A program made the translations under genes and the position numbers. A stretch of DNA of 61,935 nt from a virus (lineage: Duplodnaviria; Caudoviricetes): positions 1-61,935 of IMG/VR virus record IMGVR_UViG_3300021976_000013, one strand, 5' to 3'. The notes under the pieces were generated by a model. That model searched no databases, was not told the DNA's origin, and saw only the letters and a program-made list of their open reading frames with translations. Of this stretch, positions 27,621-56,143 are shown one piece after another (the stretch's first letter is position 1; every line of letters starts with the position of its first letter).

Positions 27621-28601
27621 ATGATCATGTACGGAACGCTCAAGGTTCACCCGTTCGCGGACAAGTTTCCGCTGATCGAAGGCACCGAGCTGGACGAGCT
27701 GGCCGAAGACATCAAGGTCAACGGGCTCCGCGAGGCGATCTTGGTTTCCAACGACGGAACCACGATCATCGACGGCCGGAACCGCTACCGCGCTTGCGAG
27801 GTTGCCGGGGTCGAGCCCAAGATCAAGCCGCTCGCCAAGACGGTCAAAGAGTCTGACGTCATCGAGCTGATCATGTCGGTCAACGTCCAGCGGCGTCACC
27901 TTTCGCAGTCTCAGCGGGCCGTGCTCGGCACCGAGTACCTGGAGTTCACCGCGAAGATCGCGGCGGAAGCCAAGCTCGCTGGCCAGAAGAAAGGAGCGGC
28001 TACCACCAACGCCAAGGCGAACGGCAACGGCGACGGTGACGAGTCGGATGGCACGCAAGCGGACGGCGACAAGCCCAAGCGCAAGCGTGGCGTTCGCGCC
28101 ACCGACCAGGCGGGCAAGCTGGTCGGCACGTCGGGTCGTTCGGTCGCTCGCGCGGCTCGGGTGAAGGCAGTGGATCCCGATCTTGCCGACGACGTTCTCA
28201 AGGGCACCGTGACTCTCGCGGGCGCAGAGGACAAGGTCCGTCGGGCGACCGGTGGTGGCGCGAAGCGCAAGCCGCGCGTGGCCACCGACCGCAGCGAGAA
28301 GCCGCTTGAGGCTCGGGCTCTGTACGAGCTGAACGCGCGCATCGGCGGTCTTGCTCGGTTCATCGAAGACCACAACGGGCTCGGCGCGTCGGTCACTTCG
28401 GCAATCGCTGGAGAGGCCGTGTTCGGTCAGAACATGCGCGCTCTGCGAGTGGCGCTTCGGGATTTCCAGCAGGAGATCAGCGAGCGCGCGGCCGAAGGTA
28501 GCGAGAGCAAGACGGACGACGGTCAGCCGACCGGCACCGACGACCAGCCGACCGGCACCGAGCCGACCGGCGACGAGAACCCGGAGATCACGACCGCATG
28601 A
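27621..28601 (+). CDS. ParB/Srx N-terminal domain protein with HTH
   Basis: L.EDIK.NGL.E.I, IDGRNRYRAC (Arg patch), N.QRRHL and A...GTS...V.RA HTH. Confidence 0.85.
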   Translation: MIMYGTLKVHPFADKFPLIEGTELDELAEDIKVNGLREAILVSNDGTTIIDGRNRYRACEVAGVEPKIKPLAKTVKESDVIELIMSVNVQRRHLSQSQRAVLGTEYLEFTAKIAAEAKLAGQKKGAATTNAKANGNGDGDESDGTQADGDKPKRKRGVRATDQAGKLVGTSGRSVARAARVKAVDPDLADDVLKGTVTLAGAEDKVRRATGGGAKRKPRVATDRSEKPLEARALYELNARIGGLARFIEDHNGLGASVTSAIAGEAVFGQNMRALRVALRDFQQEISERAAEGSESKTDDGQPTGTDDQPTGTEPTGDENPEITTA

Positions 28602-29437
28602 CCGACGTGGGAATCACCCTCAAAGGAACCGAGCCGACATGGATCGCGCTCGGCAAGCTGATCGTAGATCAGCGCGTTCAACGGCAGGCGCTGAACATGG
28701 CGCACGTGTACAAGATCGCCGAAAGCTTCGATCCGGAAGCGTTCAAGCTGGTCGCGGTCAACTACCGGCCGAAGGATGAGATCTACGGCGACGGTTCGTA
28801 CGCGATCATGGACGGGGCTCACCGATGTGAGGCTCTCCGAGAGATCGGGTTCGGACCTGACCAGCTCGTGCCGTGCGACCTTCACAGCGGGCTCACGCTG
28901 GCCGAAGAGGCGGCGATGTTCGACGAGCTGAACCATGTCAAGGTCGTCGGTGCGGCCGACCGGTTCCGGGTGTCTGTGATGGCGGGCGACCCGCTGGCGA
29001 ACGAGATCGACAAGATCGTAACGGCGCTCGGCTGGAAGATCGGCCGGGCACACACCAAGGATCCGATGATCTCCTGTGTCACAGCTCTCAAGGCTGTGTA
29101 CAGCGGACCGACCGGCGACGAGCCGATGCCGGGTGTCCTGTACGACACGCTGAACACGATCACCCGAGCGTGGGGGCATGATCCTCGCGCTGTGCGGGGC
29201 TCGCTGGTATTGGGGCTCGGCAACCTGATCAGGCGGGATGCCACGAACAAGAACCTTGATCTTAAGGGGCTCGTCCCACGGCTGGCCGCTTACAAGGGCG
29301 GTTACGACGGGATCATAGGCACCGCTCGCGCGGTCGCTTCGGGATCGAAGAAGATCAACGACGCGGTTTCATTCGTGATCGCGGACGTCCACAACAAGGG
29401 CCGCCAGACCAGAAAGCTTGATCGCTGGCTGGTCTGA
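28598..29437 (+). CDS. ParB-like domain protein (DUF6551-like)
   Basis: L.VD..VQR, V..R, Y.IMDG.HR and EA..F..LN motifs; ATGA coupling. Confidence 0.75.
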   Translation: MTDVGITLKGTEPTWIALGKLIVDQRVQRQALNMAHVYKIAESFDPEAFKLVAVNYRPKDEIYGDGSYAIMDGAHRCEALREIGFGPDQLVPCDLHSGLTLAEEAAMFDELNHVKVVGAADRFRVSVMAGDPLANEIDKIVTALGWKIGRAHTKDPMISCVTALKAVYSGPTGDEPMPGVLYDTLNTITRAWGHDPRAVRGSLVLGLGNLIRRDATNKNLDLKGLVPRLAAYKGGYDGIIGTARAVASGSKKINDAVSFVIADVHNKGRQTRKLDRWLV

Positions 29438-40142: not shown

Positions 40143-40706
40143 GTGAGGAAGATCGCATCCATCACAGCCGCGTTGATCGTCGCGTTCTCGACGATCTTCC
40201 TGGCTCTACCGGCCGGGGCTGACGTCATTCAGACGTTCCCGACGACCGGCACAGTCAAGATCGTTGAGCTGGGCACCGACGCCATGGGCGCGGACACGTT
40301 CCTGAATCGGAACCGTGAGTTCATCGATCTTCAGAACACATCGCCCACCGAGGACGTCAACATCACTGGCTGGCGCACCGAGGACGCATGGGCTTTCGGT
40401 GACAACTCACTGTCAAGCTGCAACACGTTCAAGTTCTCGACAGCCAACACGAATGGGCTCGCGGTCGGTAGTGACGTGATCCTTCCGGCCGGTCACACGG
40501 TCCGGGTGTACACCGGTAGCGGCGTGCCGAGCACGTCGGGCACCTTCCACCGATCGTTCCAGAACAGCCCGGATCACTGCGGCGCTCATGGTCACTACTG
40601 GACCAACAACGCGGATGACGCCTACCTTCGGGACAACACCCCTGATCACAACGTGGTCGCGCACGTCCGTTACAACCGGCTCGGTGGATACGAAGTGGAG
40701 TACTGA
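40143..40706 (+). CDS. secreted lamin-tail-domain protein
   Basis: Signal peptide AGA|D; EFI.L.N....VNITGW..ED, LPAG.TVRVYTGSG, W.N..D.A.L.D. Confidence 0.8.
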   Translation: MRKIASITAALIVAFSTIFLALPAGADVIQTFPTTGTVKIVELGTDAMGADTFLNRNREFIDLQNTSPTEDVNITGWRTEDAWAFGDNSLSSCNTFKFSTANTNGLAVGSDVILPAGHTVRVYTGSGVPSTSGTFHRSFQNSPDHCGAHGHYWTNNADDAYLRDNTPDHNVVAHVRYNRLGGYEVEY

Positions 40707-40951: not shown

Positions 40952-41767
40952 ATGTCACATCCATACCCCCATGCTCTGGGTCGGCGTGTCGAGCACGACC
41001 CACGATCCCTCTCGTTCGCGGTCGGCGTGCTGCCGAGATCCGCGATCCAATCTGTCTGGTGGACGCGACGGATCCCGATTCTCGATCAAGGTAATCTCGG
41101 CTCGTGCGTAGGCAACGCGATCACCGGCATTCTCGGCACCGACGCGGCTGGTCGAACCGGGTACACCAACGTGACGATCACGCAAGAGTTCTCGATCAAG
41201 ACGAACGGGATCTTCGTCGCCGGTACGTACAAGATCGATGAGCAGTTCGCGATCAAGCTCTACAGCCTGGCTACGGCCGTCGATGAATTCGCCGGTGCTT
41301 ATCCTCCGACCGATACCGGATCAAGCGGCGTAGGCGGTTCCAAGGCTCTTCAGACCCTAGGTCTGTGCCCGACGTATCAGTGGGCGTTCAGCATGGCCGC
41401 TCTACAGTCGGCGCTCATGCTCGGGCCGGTTGCGATCGGGATCCCGTGGTACGAATCGATGTTCTCTCCGTCGGCCGACGGGCGAGTGCGGATAGATCGT
41501 TCCTCTCCTCCCGTCGGCGGCCACGAGCTGGAGATCACCAAAATGGATCTCACGGCTGATCAGTATTGGTTCGCCAATTCATGGGGCGAGTCGTGGGGAA
41601 GATCAGGATGGGGCTACTTCACGTACACGGATCTTTCCACCCTGCTCGCGGAAGAGGGCGACGTCGTCTCTCCGAAGATCGTTACTCCCGCTCCAGTGCC
41701 AGCGGTCACTGATGCGCAGCTCTGGAATACGGCCAAGCTCTGGGCAGCAGGGAAGGGGCTCACGTGA
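40952..41767 (+). CDS. papain-like (C1) cysteine peptidase
   Basis: DQG..GSC.G, GGH and NSWG..WG..G catalytic motifs. Confidence 0.88.
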   Translation: MSHPYPHALGRRVEHDPRSLSFAVGVLPRSAIQSVWWTRRIPILDQGNLGSCVGNAITGILGTDAAGRTGYTNVTITQEFSIKTNGIFVAGTYKIDEQFAIKLYSLATAVDEFAGAYPPTDTGSSGVGGSKALQTLGLCPTYQWAFSMAALQSALMLGPVAIGIPWYESMFSPSADGRVRIDRSSPPVGGHELEITKMDLTADQYWFANSWGESWGRSGWGYFTYTDLSTLLAEEGDVVSPKIVTPAPVPAVTDAQLWNTAKLWAAGKGLT

Positions 41768-48059: not shown

Positions 48060-48728
48060 TCAGAATCCTCTCGCGAATTGGATGATCTGGTAAGCCAGCG
48101 TGACCAAGATCCCGATCACGACGGCTACGAAAAAGATCTTCTCTCCTGTCTTGCCGGTGGTGAAGAGATCGAGCGTGTACCGGCGCTTGGACAGTGGCCA
48201 GAAGATCGGGCACCCTCGATCGGTGAGGCAGTCACCGGCGATGTGCACGAACGCGCCAAGCATGAGTGCGGCTGGCACGATCCGGAGATCGATATCCGTG
48301 AGCCACACCACCAAGATCACTATGACTGCGGCGGCTATGTCGTCGATCCATCCGGGGATCTTGGCGAGTCGGACCACTGCGGCCACCGAGAGGACCATGA
48401 GCCAGCACAACGCGATCAAGCCAGCGGGTGAATGCCGGTAGATCAAGGCCATTTGCGCGCCGATGCCGAGCACGACCACGAACAAGATCGAATGTGTGCC
48501 ATGCCGGTGCGGGCCGAACACGAAAATGATCAATCTGCTGGATACCCACGAGAGCGGTCCGAGTGATCGCGTCATCGTCGCCTTGTGATGATCAAGGTCG
48601 TTGATCATCGCTGCCCCGGTAGTGATCAGTAGGCCGACCAGAACGCTGGTCATGCCAAGATCCCAAAGCAACGTGGCACCCCCGAATGCGAGGGTGCCAG
48701 TAGCCGCGTGCGTTCGACCAAGAGCCAC
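48060..48728 (-). CDS. membrane-bound metal-dependent hydrolase (YdjM-like)
   Basis: TH, D.DH, HR..THS and H..GD.LT..G.P.FWP motifs; multiple TMs. Confidence 0.85.
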   Translation of the reverse strand: MALGRTHAATGTLAFGGATLLWDLGMTSVLVGLLITTGAAMINDLDHHKATMTRSLGPLSWVSSRLIIFVFGPHRHGTHSILFVVVLGIGAQMALIYRHSPAGLIALCWLMVLSVAAVVRLAKIPGWIDDIAAAVIVILVVWLTDIDLRIVPAALMLGAFVHIAGDCLTDRGCPIFWPLSKRRYTLDLFTTGKTGEKIFFVAVVIGILVTLAYQIIQFARGF

Positions 48729-49157
48729 TTACGTGGTCTTCAGGATCGTTGGGCCTTCAGAAGCCGGGTTGTGCTCCAGATCCGGGTACGCGCCCGAATC
48801 GAACGAGTCTACGAAGCGCACCACGCTGCGCGGGTAGTCTATGATCACTCCGGCACCGTGGTAGTCGAGATCCAGCCACGCATGACCGGCGAGCACGGTC
48901 CAGTCGGCACCGAGGATGGATCTTGCGAGCCGGGCGATCGGGCACTCTGCGGAGCTGCCCACAAGCCCCTTGATTCCCCTCGCTGCGAGACACCCGGCGA
49001 CGATGTCAGCCGTTTCACCGAGTGAGCCGAGCACTTCGCGAAGGGTCTGGAGCTGGGCGGTCTGAACGTCGGTGAGCATGGTGATACTCCTGTCCGGGAT
49101 GTGGATCATTGCGGGTGGGTTGAATCTTGGGCCGACACGGAGTGGTGTGATCTTCAT
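48729..49157 (-). CDS. hypothetical protein
   Basis: L...GI.G.....CPIA...FV..FD.G.YP.L motif. Confidence 0.65.
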   Translation of the reverse strand: MKITPLRVGPRFNPPAMIHIPDRSITMLTDVQTAQLQTLREVLGSLGETADIVAGCLAARGIKGLVGSSAECPIARLARSILGADWTVLAGHAWLDLDYHGAGVIIDYPRSVVRFVDSFDSGAYPDLEHNPASEGPTILKTT

Positions 49158-49444
49158 CAGTTCTTAGAAGATCGTCCGGTCACGCCGTTGATGTGATCGC
49201 GAAGCTCGTCATGGGACAGCTTGCGCATTTCTGTCGCTTCCTTGATCTTGTCGGCGATCAGCGCAGCCATCTCGGCACGTACCAAGTCGGCACCGTGATG
49301 CTGACCGTAGTGGTACGTGCCAAGTCCCCACGTACCAAGCGCGGCCATCGTCAGGACCACAGTCCAGACCGGGCCGGTTTGGTACGTGGCGGCGGTCGCG
49401 AGCGCGAGACCGATAGCTAGGAGGATCTTGGACATCCTGCACAT
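49157..49444 (-). CDS. 2-TM membrane protein
   Basis: RBS GGAAGG; two hydrophobic helices. Confidence 0.6.
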   Translation of the reverse strand: MCRMSKILLAIGLALATAATYQTGPVWTVVLTMAALGTWGLGTYHYGQHHGADLVRAEMAALIADKIKEATEMRKLSHDELRDHINGVTGRSSKN

Positions 49445-49494
49445 GATCGAACTTCCTTCCGTTTGAAGACGTACAGTGCCCACTGTTTCACACC

Positions 49495-49591
49495 CTTGCC
49501 ATCCGGGCAAGGTACCTATCAGGTACGCTTGACTACAGGGCAAGGGTGATCCATACTGGAGGCTTACGTACCTGATTGACACACAGACAAG
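49495..49591. promoter_or_regulatory. divergent promoter region with three 17-bp operators
   Basis: Operators at 49495, 49528 and 49575; TTGACT-17-CATACT promoter for the tra/spd operon. Confidence 0.75.
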
Positions 49592-49601
49592 GCGGTGAGC
49601 A

Positions 49602-49898
49602 ATGGCTAAGGATCTTGAGCAGCGGGGGCGTGGCACGGTGGCACCGATCGCTACCGGTGGCGACCAGCTCATGCCCTTCGTACCGGCACCGCGTTCCAGT
49701 GGCTCGGGTGCCACTGATAAGGACTACCTAGCGGTCCGTCCCCCAGCAAACGGGCGTATCCAGGCAAAATGGTCGGCGATCATCACGCCGTACCGGGCTA
49801 CGCTGCACTTCCGGTTGTGGATCACGTTCACCTGGTGGCGAGTGATGCTCTTGGTATCCGTGATCATCGGAGTGATCGTCCTGATCAAGATCGCATAA
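49602..49898 (+). CDS. small membrane protein (Spd-like by context)
   Basis: C-terminal TM; first gene of the tra/spd operon. Confidence 0.55.
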   Translation: MAKDLEQRGRGTVAPIATGGDQLMPFVPAPRSSGSGATDKDYLAVRPPANGRIQAKWSAIITPYRATLHFRLWITFTWWRVMLLVSVIIGVIVLIKIA

Positions 49899-49923
49899 AC
49901 GTTCCAGAAAGGAACACAAGATC

Positions 49924-51060
49924 ATGAGCATTCTCAGCAAGCCGAAGCCCAAGCCGCTATCGGTTAAGATCAAGGAAGCTGCGCAGCTTGCCGAGCTTGA
50001 CGCGGTCGAGCGGGCCGCACAGTTCAAGCGCGAGCAGGAAGAGGCCGAGCGGAACGTCTGGCGTGCGGAGCAGGCCAAAGCGGCACGTACCGAAACGGCC
50101 GAGCTGACCAAGTCGGCACGTGCCGCGCGGCTGGCCGAGATGGTTCCGTACATTCCACTGATCTTGGTGAACGTTGCGGCGATCACCGGTCAGTACGGGT
50201 GGGCGATCGACAACCTGACGGAGATCGGCAGCGACACGCATGATCCCGTTCGGTGGCTGGCCGCCGCTCTGTTCGCCTTCACGGCTGAATCGATCGCTCT
50301 GTTCCTTCAGTACTACGCGAACCGAGCGTTGCGGAACCGGGACAGCGCGTTGACCTTGTACCTGTCGGCCTTCCTGGTCGCCGGTCTGGTCGCGACGGTC
50401 AACTACTCGCACTGGTCAACGCACAGTTCGGACAAAGATCTCTTGGGATCTCCGACTCCGACGGCCGTGATCTTCGCCCTCTGTTCGCTGGCTTCCCCGT
50501 GGCTCTGGCGGATCCACAACCGGGCTGAGTACCGGGAGGTTCTGAAGAAAGCCGGGGAGATCGACACTCGCGCGGTCAAGCTCTCGCTAGCTCGCAAGAT
50601 CATGCACCCGTACCGGTCTTTCATGGTCATCTGGAATTCGTCGTGGAAGGGTGACCAGACTCCGGCCGAAGCGGTCGCGGCATGGGACAAGATCCATGAC
50701 GAGAGGGTCGCTCGCAAGATCGAGCGGAAGCGTCAGGCGCGGGCCGACAAGGCGGCTGAGAGGGCCGCTAAGGCAGAGCCGGTACCGGCAGACCAGGAAG
50801 CCGTGATCAAGCCGCAGGCACCGGCTCAGCGCGCTCCCAAGGCACCTGCGGGCGTAGGCGTGGGACCGAGCCATCCGAAGTGGGCGGAAGGCGTTCGGAT
50901 CTACGAAGCGAGCAAGGCAGGTCCGGGACGTTCGCTCAGTCAGCGTGATCTAGCAGGGCATCTCAACATGAGCAATAGAGATCTTGCTACCGCGATCAAG
51001 AAATTCGTAGACGAAAGAGATCAAAATGCGATCAACAACGTTGCGCCTTCGTCCCCCTGA
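49924..51060 (+). CDS. SpdB2/DUF2637-like spread protein
   Basis: N-terminal coiled coil, four TM helices, Pro/Ala linker, C-terminal HTH (SQRDLA..L.MS). Confidence 0.65.
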   Translation: MSILSKPKPKPLSVKIKEAAQLAELDAVERAAQFKREQEEAERNVWRAEQAKAARTETAELTKSARAARLAEMVPYIPLILVNVAAITGQYGWAIDNLTEIGSDTHDPVRWLAAALFAFTAESIALFLQYYANRALRNRDSALTLYLSAFLVAGLVATVNYSHWSTHSSDKDLLGSPTPTAVIFALCSLASPWLWRIHNRAEYREVLKKAGEIDTRAVKLSLARKIMHPYRSFMVIWNSSWKGDQTPAEAVAAWDKIHDERVARKIERKRQARADKAAERAAKAEPVPADQEAVIKPQAPAQRAPKAPAGVGVGPSHPKWAEGVRIYEASKAGPGRSLSQRDLAGHLNMSNRDLATAIKKFVDERDQNAINNVAPSSP

Positions 51061-52867
51061 TCGGACGACGAAGCGGCAACCGAAGGGCGCTTGGGACGAA
51101 CTGTCCCGAGCGCTGTTTCGCTATCGAGTCGAGTTCTTTCCGATCTTGCTGGCCTTTTGGCTCTATGTGATCACTGCGGTCATGGGACCTCGCCTGCCTT
51201 GGGTAGTACCTGGCACGCTGGCGCTAGGTGCCATCCTGACGTACCAATTCGGTGGCCGGTGGAACCTGCCAAGGTTCCATCTGGCACGCCGGGAGCGTGC
51301 CTATGCGGCGGCCGTGATGGCATGCCTTGGCACGTGGGCATGGTTCGCAGTGGCACTCTCCGAGAGTGCCAAACCGAGCCTGCGATGGACCCTGATCTTG
51401 CTTGGCATGTGCGTGCCACTCTCGATTCCGTGGCTTTGGCACCGACGGATCCAAGGTTCCGTATTGGTCACGTTCGAGCCGATGCGCTCGGGTGCCAGTC
51501 GGCGCGAAAGTCGGGACTGGAATCGCTGGCACCGGGAGATGACCCACCGTGCGCGCGAAGTGGTCGCGTCGTGGGATGGCATGATCCATGGCACGTCCGC
51601 GCTAGGTTCCAAGCTGGTCGCGATCCATTTCGACGCATGGTCTGTGGAGTGCTCCGTCCGTCTGGCACATGCCAGGGTGGCGGAAGACTTCACCGAGCTA
51701 CGGCTACGGCGGCTTGAGTCTGCCTTCATGGCCAAGCGGGACAGCGCTCGGACTGACTACGCGACCGGTAAGGGTGCCAGCGCTCGGGACGCCAAGATCA
51801 AGTTCATGTTCCAGGATCCGCATGCCGAACCGATCATCCCGACGGATGATGATCTCACTCCGGACATGGATCTGACCGTGGACATCGGGCGGTTCGAGAA
51901 CAACATTCACGTGATCATCGACTTGATCCATACGCTGGTGGCCGGTGCTTCCGGAGCTGGCAAGTCGGCGATCATCAACGCGATCATGCGTGGCTTGATC
52001 CGTAAGCCGCACGTGGCGATCGTAGGGATCGATCTCAAGCCGGGCGGCCTTGAGCTTGGCAAATGGGAAGAGGCGATGTACGCGCTCGCGACGACCGGGC
52101 CGCAGGCCAAGACCCTGCTCACGGGGATCTTGAACGGCATCGGCCGACGCGGCGAGATCATGAAAGCTCGCGGGATCCGGAAGTGGGTCGCGACCGAGGC
52201 AGAGCCGTTCGTGGTCTTGATCATTGACGAAGTCCAAGCGCTGAAAGAGTTCCGGCTGTTCGCCACGCTGACAAAGATCAGTGAGCTGAGCAGGGCATAC
52301 GGCTTCGCGATGATCGTCGCTACTCAACACCCGAAAGATTCCAGCGTGCCGACGGGAGCAATCGCGAACTGCACGCAGCGGATCGGACTTCAGTGCAACG
52401 CGAGCACGGCCGAGCGGCTGATCTTCGATGACAACGCGACTCGGGAGGGCTGGCGGTTGACCAAGCTTCCGGGTGATCGAGAGGGAACCTTCCTGGTCAA
52501 GAGCAAGCGGCACCGTAGGCCGATGCGCGCTCGCTGCCACTGGCTTGACGATCACCATGTCGAGCGGGAAGCAAGATCGTTCGCAGCGACGACGACAGCG
52601 ATCGATCCGGGCACGTGGGGGGATGATCTCTTGGCGATCGATCCGCCCGACGAAGGGACGGAGATCATCGATGTTCAGGTGATCGTCGAGAACGGGCCGG
52701 AAGATGTGATCATGACATTGATCGGTTCCGGCCGGGCTCGGACGCCTTCCAAGATCAGTGAGCTGTCTCAGATCCCTGTACGCACAGTGAATGTCCTGCT
52801 CAAAAAGCTGGCGTCCGAGGGAAAGGTGATCCAAGACGGAGCACGGAAACCATGGTCGCTAACGTGA
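51026..52867 (+). CDS. TraB-like FtsK/SpoIIIE DNA translocase
   Basis: N-terminal TMs; H.LVAGASGAGKS, IDLK.G.EL, LIIDE, RA.G...VATQ.P; C-terminal winged HTH. Confidence 0.9.
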   Translation: MRSTTLRLRPPDRTTKRQPKGAWDELSRALFRYRVEFFPILLAFWLYVITAVMGPRLPWVVPGTLALGAILTYQFGGRWNLPRFHLARRERAYAAAVMACLGTWAWFAVALSESAKPSLRWTLILLGMCVPLSIPWLWHRRIQGSVLVTFEPMRSGASRRESRDWNRWHREMTHRAREVVASWDGMIHGTSALGSKLVAIHFDAWSVECSVRLAHARVAEDFTELRLRRLESAFMAKRDSARTDYATGKGASARDAKIKFMFQDPHAEPIIPTDDDLTPDMDLTVDIGRFENNIHVIIDLIHTLVAGASGAGKSAIINAIMRGLIRKPHVAIVGIDLKPGGLELGKWEEAMYALATTGPQAKTLLTGILNGIGRRGEIMKARGIRKWVATEAEPFVVLIIDEVQALKEFRLFATLTKISELSRAYGFAMIVATQHPKDSSVPTGAIANCTQRIGLQCNASTAERLIFDDNATREGWRLTKLPGDREGTFLVKSKRHRRPMRARCHWLDDHHVEREARSFAATTTAIDPGTWGDDLLAIDPPDEGTEIIDVQVIVENGPEDVIMTLIGSGRARTPSKISELSQIPVRTVNVLLKKLASEGKVIQDGARKPWSLT

Positions 52868-52975
52868 GTTTCCGCAGGTCAGAGACCCGGACCCCTTGAT
52901 CGTCATGAGGTGGTCCGGGTGTACCCAACTAGGGGTGTAGCCCCTTAGAATGCAGCTCAGGGCCGTACAGAGCCA
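52868..52975 (+). repeat. dispersed ~100-bp element, copy F
   Basis: GTTTCCGCAGGTCAGAGAC...CTCAGGGCCGTACAGAGCCA starting right after the traB stop. Confidence 0.85.
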
Positions 52976-53059
52976 TGTGACAGGCTGTAGCGCTTGCCAG
53001 CACGGCAAGATGTGAGATGATGAGATCACACGTTCCGATCCCGAGGGAAAGAGTCGATC

Positions 53060-53569
53060 ATGGGCATAACAAAGATCGTTCTGGACATCCGCAACCTGGC
53101 TGACCGGTGGTCGTACGATTCCCAGAATCACGCGGAGACCAAGATCTCCGTAGTCAAGGCGGTCGGCGAGCTTCGTCAGCTCGCGTATGACATCGAGTAC
53201 GGCATCAAGATCGATTCGGTGGACTGGGACGGGTCCATCCCCGAGCCGGTCAAGATCGCGTGGTGGCAGCGCCAGCTCGTCTCAAAGGATCTTGGCCTTA
53301 GCGTGGGGTCGGCCATCGGATTCACGATCTTCACAGTCTTCGTGATCATGGGCTTTAAGATCGACACTGCCTTCCTGGCCTTCGCGATCATTGCTCTGAT
53401 CATGGCCGAGAAAATGTTCGGGATCTGGGAGCCGGAGAACGACGAGATCGATTCAGGTCCGATCTTGAGCCGAGAGCAAGTGATCATGCTCGGTGGCTGG
53501 CTCAACGACAAGATCAGCCAGGCCAAGAGCAAGATCAAGCCTAAGAAATCCGATCTTGAGGAGGAGTAA
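53060..53569 (+). CDS. 2-TM membrane protein
   Basis: Operator at 52993; two TMs. Confidence 0.65.
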   Translation: MGITKIVLDIRNLADRWSYDSQNHAETKISVVKAVGELRQLAYDIEYGIKIDSVDWDGSIPEPVKIAWWQRQLVSKDLGLSVGSAIGFTIFTVFVIMGFKIDTAFLAFAIIALIMAEKMFGIWEPENDEIDSGPILSREQVIMLGGWLNDKISQAKSKIKPKKSDLEEE

Positions 53570-54322
53570 TCGATCATGAGTTCTGTTGCCTCGCGCGGGC
53601 GTGCGCACACGCACGCTCGTGCAGGCGCAAGCGCAAGCGCACGCAATATGTGACGCGCGCATGACGTGGGAAAATGACCGGAAATAAGCGCAAATGATCT
53701 TGAAACAACTGATCGCTTGCGCTTATTTTGATCAAGAAAATCGGGGCTGGAGGATCAAGATGATCTTAAAGAACAGGAGTCAGCAGCCCGAGCACCAACA
53801 TTTTGTGATCACGTGCGGACCCTGCGGCTATCAGTTCCCATCGTGCGGGATACCGTGTTTCGCGATCTGTCCGGCATGTGTGACGATCTTGACTCTCTGG
53901 GAGGATTCGTGATCGAAACGATCTTGAGTAGGCTGGCTCGGCGAATCCACATCTGGTGGATCTTCCGGAAGCGGCAACGGACCAACATCGAAGGACCTGG
54001 CCAAATGATGTGGATCATGGGCCGATGGTATGTGATCACGATGATCGAATCTGATCGTCGGCTCGGTGAAGCAAGCTTGGTGACCGTAAGAGGTCAAGAT
54101 CCTATGAGTTACTACGACCGGCATTGGATCAAGAGGAGTGATCTTCGTGGGTGAACACAGCCGCATGCCCGACAGTCGGTGGGATCTGCTCTGGCAGATC
54201 ACGCAGAATCCGATGAAGGCTCAGACAGCACGTACCAAGATCGAATATTGGTGCCGTCTCGGTACGCTGGTGGCACTGATCGTTATCACTCTGGCACTCG
54301 GTACCTACGGAGTGGTACAGAC

Positions 54323-54544
54323 ATGGCTGTGATCGGCGAGCGGGCCAAGCTGGCACGTGCCATCAGAGAGCTAGACACGTTCCTCCGTATGTGCCTCGCG
54401 GAACGTACCAAGACGGAGGATCCGGTACGTAGAGCCGAAGTGGTACGGCAGATAGATGCCGCTTTGGATCGCCGGTCACGTGCCATGTGGGCACTCAAGT
54501 GGGACCAATTCAAAGTGGCACACGAGACGGACGTACCAAAATGA
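54323..54544 (+). CDS. hypothetical protein
   Basis: Coupled to 54541; RBS GGAG. Confidence 0.5.
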   Translation: MAVIGERAKLARAIRELDTFLRMCLAERTKTEDPVRRAEVVRQIDAALDRRSRAMWALKWDQFKVAHETDVPK

Positions 54545-55368
54545 CCCTCTATCCAGAATGGTTCATCGGCGGGCCGTGGCACGGCAAGGACAAGCGAACG
54601 GTCTGCCCGAATCTTCAGGGCATGGTCACGGTGGCTGTGTCGCCAAGTCTTCAGGAGATCTTCAGTCAGCCTGACCCGAACATGGAAATGGGCGTTGATC
54701 ATATCCACTACGTACCGAGATCGTTCGCGGTCTTCGGTCAGCGGCTCATAGTCTGGCTCACCGAAGAGGACGCATCTTCGATCATTGGCACGGCCGGAAC
54801 CGGCGCGCTGGTCAATCCGATAGATCGCGGCCAAGAGCTGATGCGGATGATCGGAGAATTGATCATGGCCCCGCATGCCGTCGTCGGTGGACATGCCGGG
54901 TACGACGTGAGCGCCATAGCCGAGCAACGTTCCAGCGAGTGGCAAGAGCAGATAGATCGGGAACGGTGGGCCGATCAACGGTACGCGGGCACGATCGACG
55001 AGTACCGGCGCACGATCTCTCAGCAGCGGGCTCAGATCGATCAACTCTCCCGGCAGGTTCGGCGGGAGTCCATGGGTGATCAGTGGCGCTACTTCCAAGA
55101 CACAGAGTCGGTACCGGCGATCAAAATGGAGCTGGCGGCCGACGGGTTGTGGTGGGGAGTTGATCAAGCCAACGTTACAACGTATCTCGATCAAGGTGAC
55201 GGTACCGAGGAGTCTCCCCCGGCATGGGTCGCCACGGCACAAACGGATCATGGGCCGATCACCGGCTACGGTACGAACGTGAAAGCGGCGCTGATCGCTA
55301 TGGCGGCCGACGCGTGTCAGGTGTACGCACGCATGATCGACATATCCGAGAAACCGAGGATGCGATGA
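54541..55368 (+). CDS. hypothetical protein
   Basis: FIGGP.HG start motif; coiled coil. Confidence 0.65.
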   Translation: MTLYPEWFIGGPWHGKDKRTVCPNLQGMVTVAVSPSLQEIFSQPDPNMEMGVDHIHYVPRSFAVFGQRLIVWLTEEDASSIIGTAGTGALVNPIDRGQELMRMIGELIMAPHAVVGGHAGYDVSAIAEQRSSEWQEQIDRERWADQRYAGTIDEYRRTISQQRAQIDQLSRQVRRESMGDQWRYFQDTESVPAIKMELAADGLWWGVDQANVTTYLDQGDGTEESPPAWVATAQTDHGPITGYGTNVKAALIAMAADACQVYARMIDISEKPRMR

Positions 55369-55778
55369 TCCAAGAGAAAGAGTGGGTGCTAGCCGAAGAG
55401 TGCATCGAGGTTCATGATCCACGTCTGTACGCTCGGGAGACGGACGGCGGATGGATGGACGACCCACGGAGCATGCATCACCACTGGATGATCTTGCGCC
55501 GACGGAACCCCCACTGCTCGAAATGTGGAGGGCGCGGCGGCGGGCCGTTCGGTCATGAAGCCAGCGAGTGCACATGGACGCATCCGGCCGAGAAGATCGA
55601 AGTAGTTCCGTCCGAAGAGCTGGAGATCAAGTTCCCGATCTTCGTCGCCAATCTCGTGATCGTGGACGCGGGCAGCGAAGAGGTCTTGCTTGACCTTAAG
55701 ATGTCAGGTCGGCATCGGGTAGTTCTCGATCTTCTGACTCTCGCGGCCGACACGGTGAAAGAGGACATCGAAAGATGA
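55365..55778 (+). CDS. hypothetical protein with Zn-finger
   Basis: C..CGG.G......C; ATGA coupling. Confidence 0.55.
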   Translation: MIQEKEWVLAEECIEVHDPRLYARETDGGWMDDPRSMHHHWMILRRRNPHCSKCGGRGGGPFGHEASECTWTHPAEKIEVVPSEELEIKFPIFVANLVIVDAGSEEVLLDLKMSGRHRVVLDLLTLAADTVKEDIER

Positions 55779-56143
55779 TCGTTACCAAGGCGCTGATCAA
55801 GAAAGCCATCTGGGAATTCGACTTCGGAGACTTCGGGCTCGACGAAGCTGAAATGACCAAGGAAGATCCAGGCGCTACCGAGTGGATCGACAAGCTGGCC
55901 GAGAAGATCCACAACAAAATGGCTGGAGCGGAAGAATGATCACATTCAGGATTCGTGAATTGGGCTTCTGGTGTCAGCCATGATCGTTACCCTCAAGATC
56001 GATGTCAAGCGGCAACCGGACGTGAAACCGGCTGATCTTGCCGAGATAGTGATCTCTAACGTAGTCAACTTCGTTCGGGATCGGCACGCGGCGGATGTGG
56101 TCGAGGTTCATTGGACGGCCGACACAAGCGCTCGGGACATCCG

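Follow-up and report, generated by a model that had tools for sequence, protein, structure and literature searches.

Arrays of a short DNA word in and around an FtsK/TraB-like translocase gene of a phage

The translocase gene and its site arrays

The virus record IMGVR_UViG_3300021976_000013 (Duplodnaviria; Caudoviricetes) is a linear sequence of 61,935 bases with a CheckV completeness estimate of 85%, and the whole of it, positions 1 to 61,935, is the window analysed here. On its + strand, positions 51026-52867 hold a gene for a 613-aa FtsK/TraB-like DNA translocase (the pump), assigned from Pfam, phrog_1358, NCBIfam, a structure model and Foldseek. Inside the 5' half of this gene lies an array of 14 copies of the hexamer TGGYAC (array c2, 51211-51779). 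The gene start is overlapped by the 3' end of a second + strand gene, at 49924-51060, which encodes a 378-aa membrane protein with a C-terminal helix-turn-helix (HTH)-like domain and is called the partner below. Further arrays of the more general word YGGYAC lie upstream and downstream of the pump gene.

The 14 copies of c2, 13 TGGCAC and one TGGTAC, are distributed over both strands (eight on + and six on -) within codons 62-252. They start at 51211, 51228, 51241, 51282, 51328, 51351, 51366, 51413, 51437, 51492, 51527, 51589, 51663 and 51774, exactly the positions given by an earlier, sequence-only reading of this DNA. Other observations of that reading were reproduced as well. Variant words are present in 51150-51800 (five TGGYA[AGT] and four TGG[AG]AC), and the copies fall in differing codon frames (3, 7 and 4 in phases 0, 1 and 2), with Trp-His encoded by just two of the 14. 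The array also ends before the ATPase domain: no TGGYAC occurs in 51800-54200, and the array therefore stops ahead of the Walker A motif (residues 307-314).

The clustering is strong on every measure applied. TGGYAC occurs 84 times in the whole window, compared to 43.4 ± 6.7 in 100 dinucleotide shuffles (largest 61), and its mean count per 600 bp is 0.82, with a maximum of 14 at 51201-51800. When all hexamers were scanned, GTGCCA/TGGCAC at 51211-51774 was the most clustered in the record, with 13 of its 62 copies found there (Poisson p ~7e-15). The Trp, His, Gly and Ala content of the transmembrane region, which the sequence-only reading had set against its own claim as a possible full explanation, fails to account for the count. 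Codons 58-254 were shuffled in three ways with 5000 trials each, and none of the trials reached 14 copies. Permuting synonymous codons gave a mean of 3.7 TGGYAC (largest 10), redrawing codons from the phage codon usage gave 2.7 (largest 8), and shuffling the codon order gave 1.05 (largest 7). Since the protein-keeping shuffles do not reach the observed count, amino-acid content does not explain it, and c2 is a DNA-level feature rather than a by-product of that content. The residues beneath the c2 copies show a mean agreement of 0.23 with 40 homologues, versus 0.38 for the whole region; the word is placed where the protein is free to vary.

Searched with YGGYAC, the window contains five arrays with 53 copies in total, all within 49.27-55.27 kb and none elsewhere in the 61.9 kb. 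They extend from 1.8 kb upstream to 4.2 kb downstream of the translocase gene start, with c2 as the intragenic one. The narrower word TGGYAC forms three clusters, at 49.2-49.8 kb (8 copies), 51.15-51.8 kb (14) and 54.2-54.85 kb (13), with no copy in the stretches between them; its density in the first 48 kb is 0.7 per kb. Array c1a (49273-49385; seven YGGYAC, including three exact CTTGGYACGT) lies in a leftward small gene, and array c1b (49631-49795; six YGGYAC) at the start of the rightward operon, so that this first pair spans the divergent region between the leftward gene block and the rightward operon. In this intergenic region, a promoter-like site on the + strand (TTGACT-17-CATACT, 49529-49557; a consensus match only) has GGTAC sites on either side. 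Array c3a (54232-54791) has 18 YGGYAC, namely eight TGGCAC, five TGGTAC, four CGGTAC and one CGGCAC, of which 11 are on the + strand and seven on the - strand. Array c3b (54979-55274), inside an open reading frame (ORF) at 54541-55368, has eight, seven of them CGGTAC.

Comparison of the copies gave a degenerate site of 9-10 bp, tTGGYACGt, with the core GGYAC. Among array copies, ~80% in the window and 80-100% in relatives have a pyrimidine before GG, and the informative flanks are T at positions -1 and -2 and G then T on the 3' side of the core. The extended word CTTGGYACGT has six exact copies in the window, all six in arrays; with at most one mismatch it has 23 copies, versus 5.1 expected in total, 15 of which are in arrays. 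Palindromic site pairs are also present, such as TGGCACGTGCCA at 54351, within c3a, and TGGTACGTGCCA at 49311. Orientation and spacing of the sites are heterogeneous, and a same-strand triple-site pattern had no match in the window. These arrays are very probably functional binding-site arrays of the transfer module formed by pump and partner, binding being predicted from the sequence. A different identity of the word, as part of a sigma-54 promoter (-24 TGGCAC / -12 TTGC), was considered and rejected: TGGCAC-N5-TTGC has no exact match, and its five one-mismatch matches (3.25 expected) are all outside the arrays.

The encoded proteins and the surrounding genes

The translocase matches Pfam PF01580 (FtsK_SpoIIIE) at 30.5 bits (cut-off 24) and phrog_1358 with an E-value of 2e-35, and the Walker A residues G307, G312, K313 and S314 are invariant across 41 sequences. 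An AlphaFold model built with 41 homologues has a mean predicted local distance difference test (pLDDT) score of 88. It is laid out as four long N-terminal hydrophobic helices within residues 38-142 (predicted at 38-53, 60-75, 88-110 and 119-142), a linker domain, the motor, a disordered linker (534-555) and a C-terminal winged helix (558-612). The winged helix, encoded at 52697-52861 on the + strand, consists in the model of helices 558-567, 574-581 and 585-597 and a two-strand wing, with a pLDDT of ~90, and homologues of the translocase carry Pfam HTH matches. Two motifs are kept in most of the 41 family members, 'RTV' where the third helix begins and 'R.PW' in the wing. The top Foldseek match of the model is the FtsK motor 6t8o_A (E-value 1.9e-17, template-modelling score 0.70 on the target).

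The best NCBIfam match of the translocase is plasmid_TraB (NF041214, an equivalog model), which covers residues 301-510 only; the score is 47.8 bits and the cut-off of the model 800. The identity of the translocase to plasmid and phage proteins does not exceed 31-33% (31% for plasmid proteins) and covers only the motor. The layout matches, the score is 47.8 against 800 and the identity is confined to the motor; therefore the modelled protein is TraB-like in architecture and lies outside the plasmid TraB equivalog. The FtsK/SpoIIIE genes most like the window motor are carried by Streptomyces 'plasmids' of 129-132 kb (H19-H23). In size they equal phage Gilgamesh (129 kb), the carrier of the best phage match, so they may be phage-plasmids.

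The partner has a coiled-coil N-terminus, DUF2637-like membrane helices, a basic linker and the HTH-like domain at its C-terminus. Seven of 24 members of its family match DUF2637 (PF10935; best E-value 1.1e-6), and one matches HTH_23 (E-value 3.1e-5). Further upstream, on the - strand at 48060-48728, lies the conserved divergent neighbour of the module, a gene for a YdjM-like membrane hydrolase (Pfam YdjM, E-value 4e-20), homologues of which are found upstream in L001, L002, L003, L004, L134 and L214 (the loci are introduced in the next section).

The window also encodes a large terminase, a major head protein that is ~36% identical to its Streptomyces phage counterparts, a primase/helicase and a DNA polymerase. 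Two adjacent genes beside the primase and polymerase genes encode ParB-like proteins (27627-28601, a weak ParB_N match, and 28598-29437, DUF6551). No tyrosine or serine recombinase (integrase, resolvase) was detected in the record, which is estimated to be 85% complete. The stretch is present in soil metagenome runs, and no RNA run is listed as containing it. Megablast of 49000-55000 against the phage collection gave no match, an Rfam scan of 48500-56000 found no RNA family, and the cumulative GC skew climbs steadily across the window. Several features of the window concern other subjects: GATC occurs 1250 times, compared to 224 expected from base composition (~1 per 50 bases), CTAG is depleted to 91 copies, and the genes at 40143-40706 and 41027-41767 encode a lamin-tail-domain protein and a papain-like cysteine protease.

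The arrays in a near-identical strain and in relatives

Contigs from runs X4 and X6, which represent one sample, were aligned to the window and differ from it by 1-4% over c1 (the c1a/c1b pair), the motor-coding part of the pump gene and c3. At 50890-51702 the difference is 13-17%, and 121 bases are replaced by 136 others. At 52675-52846, in the part coding for the winged helix, there are at least 20 substitutions as well as small indels. Divergence is thus concentrated in the HTH-coding end of the partner gene, in the 5' part of the pump gene that bears the array and in the pump winged helix, and not in c1 or c3.

Protein searches yielded ~40 full-length translocase homologues with 32-67% identity (45-67% for P0002-P0032); searches for close relatives of the locus with single proteins found nothing. 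DNA was compared for seven viral contigs (L001-L007), one metagenome locus (L134) and L214, in which the pump is represented by no more than its first 241 residues (48.5% identical). Two pairs, L002/L004 and L006/L007, are near-duplicates; L001 and L003 share 68% identity with each other and L134 and L002 share 60%, leaving seven lineages with the window counted. In every relative with DNA, YGGYAC arrays are found within ~3 kb of the pump gene. The sequence-only reading had proposed that site and protein stay linked during horizontal transfer, and the same word does accompany the orthologous gene in relatives of only 30-48% protein identity. The preferred form is TGGYAC in the window and L006 and CGGTAC in the other relatives, often as CGGTACCG.

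This association was also apparent against a broader background. Among 213 FtsK/TraB-like loci, the 184 of at least 5 kb were ranked by their highest YGGYAC count per 600 bp, and the eight full-length relatives took ranks 1-7 and 10 (9-31 copies; median 5). In 26 DUF2637 loci that are more distant (L217-L242), the count does not exceed 11 per 600 bp. Whole records of relatives (G001-G005) were scanned for three sites spaced by at most 25 bp, a pattern for which the reversed control gave 0-2 matches per record. All matches lie at or near the gene in G001 (4 of 4), G005 (9 of 9) and G003 (2 of 2), as do 11 of the 20 matches in G002 and most of the 38 in G004. Of the proteins encoded at these loci of the window and its relatives, the translocase alone is common to all.

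The location of the arrays relative to the gene is less constant. The numbers of TGGYAC in the 5' and 3' halves of the gene are 14 and 0 in the window, 17 and 0 in L005, 21 and 0 in L006 and 14 and 0 in L007, and none of 2000 protein-keeping shuffles reaches these. In L001 and L003 small intragenic arrays are present but fall short of significance, their counts being reached by 182 and 227 of 2000 shuffles. L002/L004 and L134 have no intragenic array, their arrays lying outside the gene. A significant intragenic array is thus found in three deep lineages, namely the window, L005 and L006/L007. The earlier proposal that the translocase gene carries its own recognition array stands for these lineages and does not extend to L002/L004, L134 and L214, where the arrays are outside the gene. 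Across the loci compared, the conserved property is the association of the arrays with the module, within which they shift position. In L006, the first part of a long ORF is probably an upstream array read through as an ORF, and a second array lies in the part coding for the membrane helices, as in the window.

L006 belongs to record G005, a sequence of 24,063 bases with direct terminal repeats and a completeness rating of 100%. Besides the TraB-like gene with its two TGGYAC arrays, this record holds genes for an XRE-type HTH protein and a 472-aa ATPase-like protein; it could represent a small phage, a satellite or an element resembling a plasmid.

A further suggestion of the sequence-only reading, that other phage groups with TraB-like proteins would have different clustered words, was not borne out, as most of the candidates are peptide repeats of the upstream gene. 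The same-strand arrays of CGGACC (50 copies) in L044, CGAAGC (24 copies) in L018, CGAACA in L016 and GAGCGC in L034 were rejected on this ground, since they encode the low-complexity linker of the upstream gene. These hexamer repeats span 3970-4569 in L044, 3191-3740 in L018, 4561-4801 in L016 and 4144-4509 in L034, with up to 50 CGGACC in 600 bases. A group of 23 loci from L023-L051, encoding proteins of ~585 aa, shows a weak signal, a 1.5-2-fold excess of GGTCC/GGACC in the 5' half; at 13 of these mutually related loci, at most 8 of 500 shuffles reach the observed count.

The word itself also occurs elsewhere. A scan of viral contigs for CTTGGYACGT-N0-30-CTTGGYACGT returned 40 loci, roughly the chance level, none of which has a TraB, DUF2637 or YdjM homologue. 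Two unrelated AT-rich viral contigs (L253, 4111-4190; L281, 9-90) have tight intergenic TGGTAC repeats and no TraB-like gene in the stretch examined; therefore the bare hexamer is used by other systems too.

Possible readers of the arrays and comparison with known systems

The reading we favour, with a probability of about 0.5, is that the arrays are clt-like protein-binding sites of a phage transfer module and are read by the C-terminal winged helix of the translocase. The arrays, their DNA-level excess, their link to the gene family and the protein architecture are observed, and from them we infer which protein binds and what the binding does. In this proposal, c2 would be kept by selection on DNA and would be one of five arrays marking a phage-borne DNA-transfer module. 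Its two proteins would be the HTH-bearing, DUF2637-like membrane protein and, encoded after it, a hexameric FtsK/TraB-like pump that is anchored in the membrane and has a winged helix at its C-terminus. These winged helices would recognise the sites as Streptomyces plasmid TraB does clt repeats; rings of the pump would form on the double-stranded DNA of the phage itself, which they would then drive through a membrane or septum. Sites beside the operon promoter could in addition feed back on expression. An array would be accommodated in the 5' half of the gene because the weakly constrained membrane and linker residues there tolerate the word in any frame. The conservation of 'RTV' and 'R.PW' in most family members would fit the conserved core word. 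Plasmid TraB and TraA proteins offer a model for this mode of recognition, as the available parts of PMC3583192, PMC4447253 and PMC4170104 describe them as binding repeated 7-9 bp clt words through a C-terminal winged helix.

Several observations weigh against this proposal. The partner, with its HTH, lies directly upstream of the pump gene and is syntenic with it in six of seven lineages, which makes it an alternative reader of the sites. The winged helix is the least conserved domain of the pump (36% mean identity, versus 60% for the motor), and the core word is the same in the window, L006, L001 and L003 although their third helices differ, unlike the covariation known for plasmid TraB. The sequence-only reading had expected clustered words to change with helix 3, and within the family no such covariation was seen: the GGYAC core is constant while the helix varies. 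A single GGYAC lies within the first 680 bp of the pump gene of L214, which is the closest of the relatives compared at the DNA level, and the intragenic position is therefore dispensable. The promoter-flanking sites of the window and the palindromes of L214 are operator-like, as would suit a dimeric regulator. Finally, the plasmid_TraB score is far below its cut-off and the element is a phage, not a plasmid.

The main rival is that the arrays are operators read by the partner HTH. On this view a regulator of the module, likeliest the C-terminal HTH of the partner, would use them as operators or nucleation sites and would repress the promoter or prevent transcription of a pump that may be toxic, comparable to plasmid kil-kor control; the pump itself would not be the reader. 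We consider this somewhat unlikely, though it is the strongest of the alternatives. It draws on the GGTAC sites that straddle the promoter-like TTGACT-17-CATACT, on two GTACC-N5-GGTAC palindromes beside a TTGACA at 7850-7925 of L214, upstream of its DUF2637-like partner gene, and on the recurrence of the GTACC-N5-GGTAC spacing nine times across seven loci. The partner is syntenic with the translocase gene in L001, L002, L003, L005, L134 and L214, members of its family match HTH models, and its HTH-coding end diverges together with the array region as a single block (50890-51702) in the near-identical strain. Precedents are given in the accessible portions of two papers, where SpdA2 of pIJ101 is described as binding palindromes in its own gene (PMC4170104) and unregulated traB is reported to be toxic (PMC4447253). 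However, in the complete-rated G005, two arrays with 35 YGGYAC occupy the 5' end of the pump gene, and no partner homologue is detectable. Moreover, 14-31 sites over 300-800 bp of coding sequence, several kb from any promoter-like site, exceed typical operators, and the heterogeneous orientation and spacing of the sites also speak against a regulator.

It is quite improbable that the arrays serve another DNA transaction, as centromere-like partition sites, replication iterons or sites for host proteins, and are merely co-located with the pump gene. Centromeres and iterons typically consist of short multi-copy repeats on both strands, the window encodes two ParB-like proteins (27627-28601 and 28598-29437), unrelated AT-rich phage contigs have iteron-like TGGTAC repeats without a TraB gene, and G002 and G004 hold a few extra arrays distant from the pump gene. 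However, a homologue of the ParB-like protein encoded at 27627-28601 was found in none of five related records, two of which are rated complete, and the arrays follow the pump gene across lineages in which the other neighbours differ. Most copies are in coding sequence rather than in an AT-rich intergenic origin, and the steady GC skew has no turning point at 49-55 kb. That c2 is functionless and results simply from composition, from codon usage or from recent recombination within a hypervariable segment has almost no chance of being right: although 50890-51702 is a divergence hot spot between near-identical strains and the region is Trp-rich, with 3-4 copies still given by protein-keeping shuffles, none of the 5000 shuffles of each kind reaches 14, the same word is clustered at four further places in the module, and it is clustered at the orthologous gene in lineages of 30-35% protein identity.

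Returning to the clt-like reading, a bolder extension of it, which we regard as distinctly unlikely, is that a phage lineage took over a Streptomyces-type apparatus for conjugation and spreading of double-stranded DNA together with its own clt. Pump, partner and arrays would then move the genome between hyphal compartments, into neighbouring cells or into spores without virions, and the diverging winged helix and the intragenic array would form a specificity pair that keeps the pump loyal to its own DNA. If so, particle-free transfer would be a second route of phage spread. The clt-like reading itself, should it hold, would blur the boundary between phages and conjugative elements in filamentous actinobacteria. 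FtsK-like genes are found in many actinobacteriophages, where the available part of one survey lists them as present without a function (10.1101/2024.02.16.580700), and a full-text literature search returned no description of recognition-site arrays for phage FtsK-like genes. The arrays described here point to sequence-directed handling of the phage's own DNA rather than a generic host takeover, and a conserved array specific to the module offers a testable cis-acting partner for such genes.

Three known systems invite comparison. In FtsK-KOPS (FtsK orienting polar sequences) and SpoIIIE-SRS (SpoIIIE recognition sequences), a C-terminal winged helix reads a short word and thereby loads the pump on DNA, and KOPS are chromosome-wide and strongly polar. 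The window translocase has the same motor fold by Foldseek. Different from KOPS, its sites are in five tight clusters without strand polarity (eight + and six - in c2, 11 + and seven - in c3a).

A second system is SpdA2 and its sps sites on pIJ101, which the consulted sections of PMC4170104 place within the coding sequence of SpdA2 itself and examine by synonymous recoding. A DNA-binding transfer or spread protein thus has sites in its own coding sequence, as is predicted for the window. By that account, sps is a 12-bp palindrome in one to three copies tied to a conserved SRDD/E peptide, whereas c2 has 14 short sites in all frames on non-conserved residues. No SpdA homologue was identified.

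The third is the Streptomyces TraB/clt system of pSVH1, pWTY27, pJV1 and pIJ101. The carrier here is a phage with a terminase, major head protein, primase and DNA polymerase, not a plasmid or an actinomycete integrative and conjugative element, and the protein family is distinct (47.8 bits against 800; at most 31%, motor-only identity to plasmid proteins). As far as the excerpts of PMC3583192, PMC4447253 and PMC4170104 go, clt has nine repeats in pJV1 and three in pIJ101, and that of pWTY27 has four DC1 copies plus further DC2 copies (PMC3583192). Thus three clt loci have 3-9 direct repeats in these excerpts, compared to 53 YGGYAC in five arrays on both strands in the window, where the predicted binding sites of c2 alone span ~570 bp within the 5' half of the gene. 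In both, an FtsK-like pump with a C-terminal winged helix (for the window, in the model), membrane-associated in the plasmids and putatively so in the window, is found near an array of a repeated 7-10 bp word, and the array can overlap the pump gene, as the pWTY27 clt takes in 16 bp of traA, whose product footprints 7-bp repeats in the part of PMC3583192 at hand, and as c2 does in the window. The adjacent membrane partner, in turn, recalls the Spd proteins as they are portrayed in the available text of PMC4447253.

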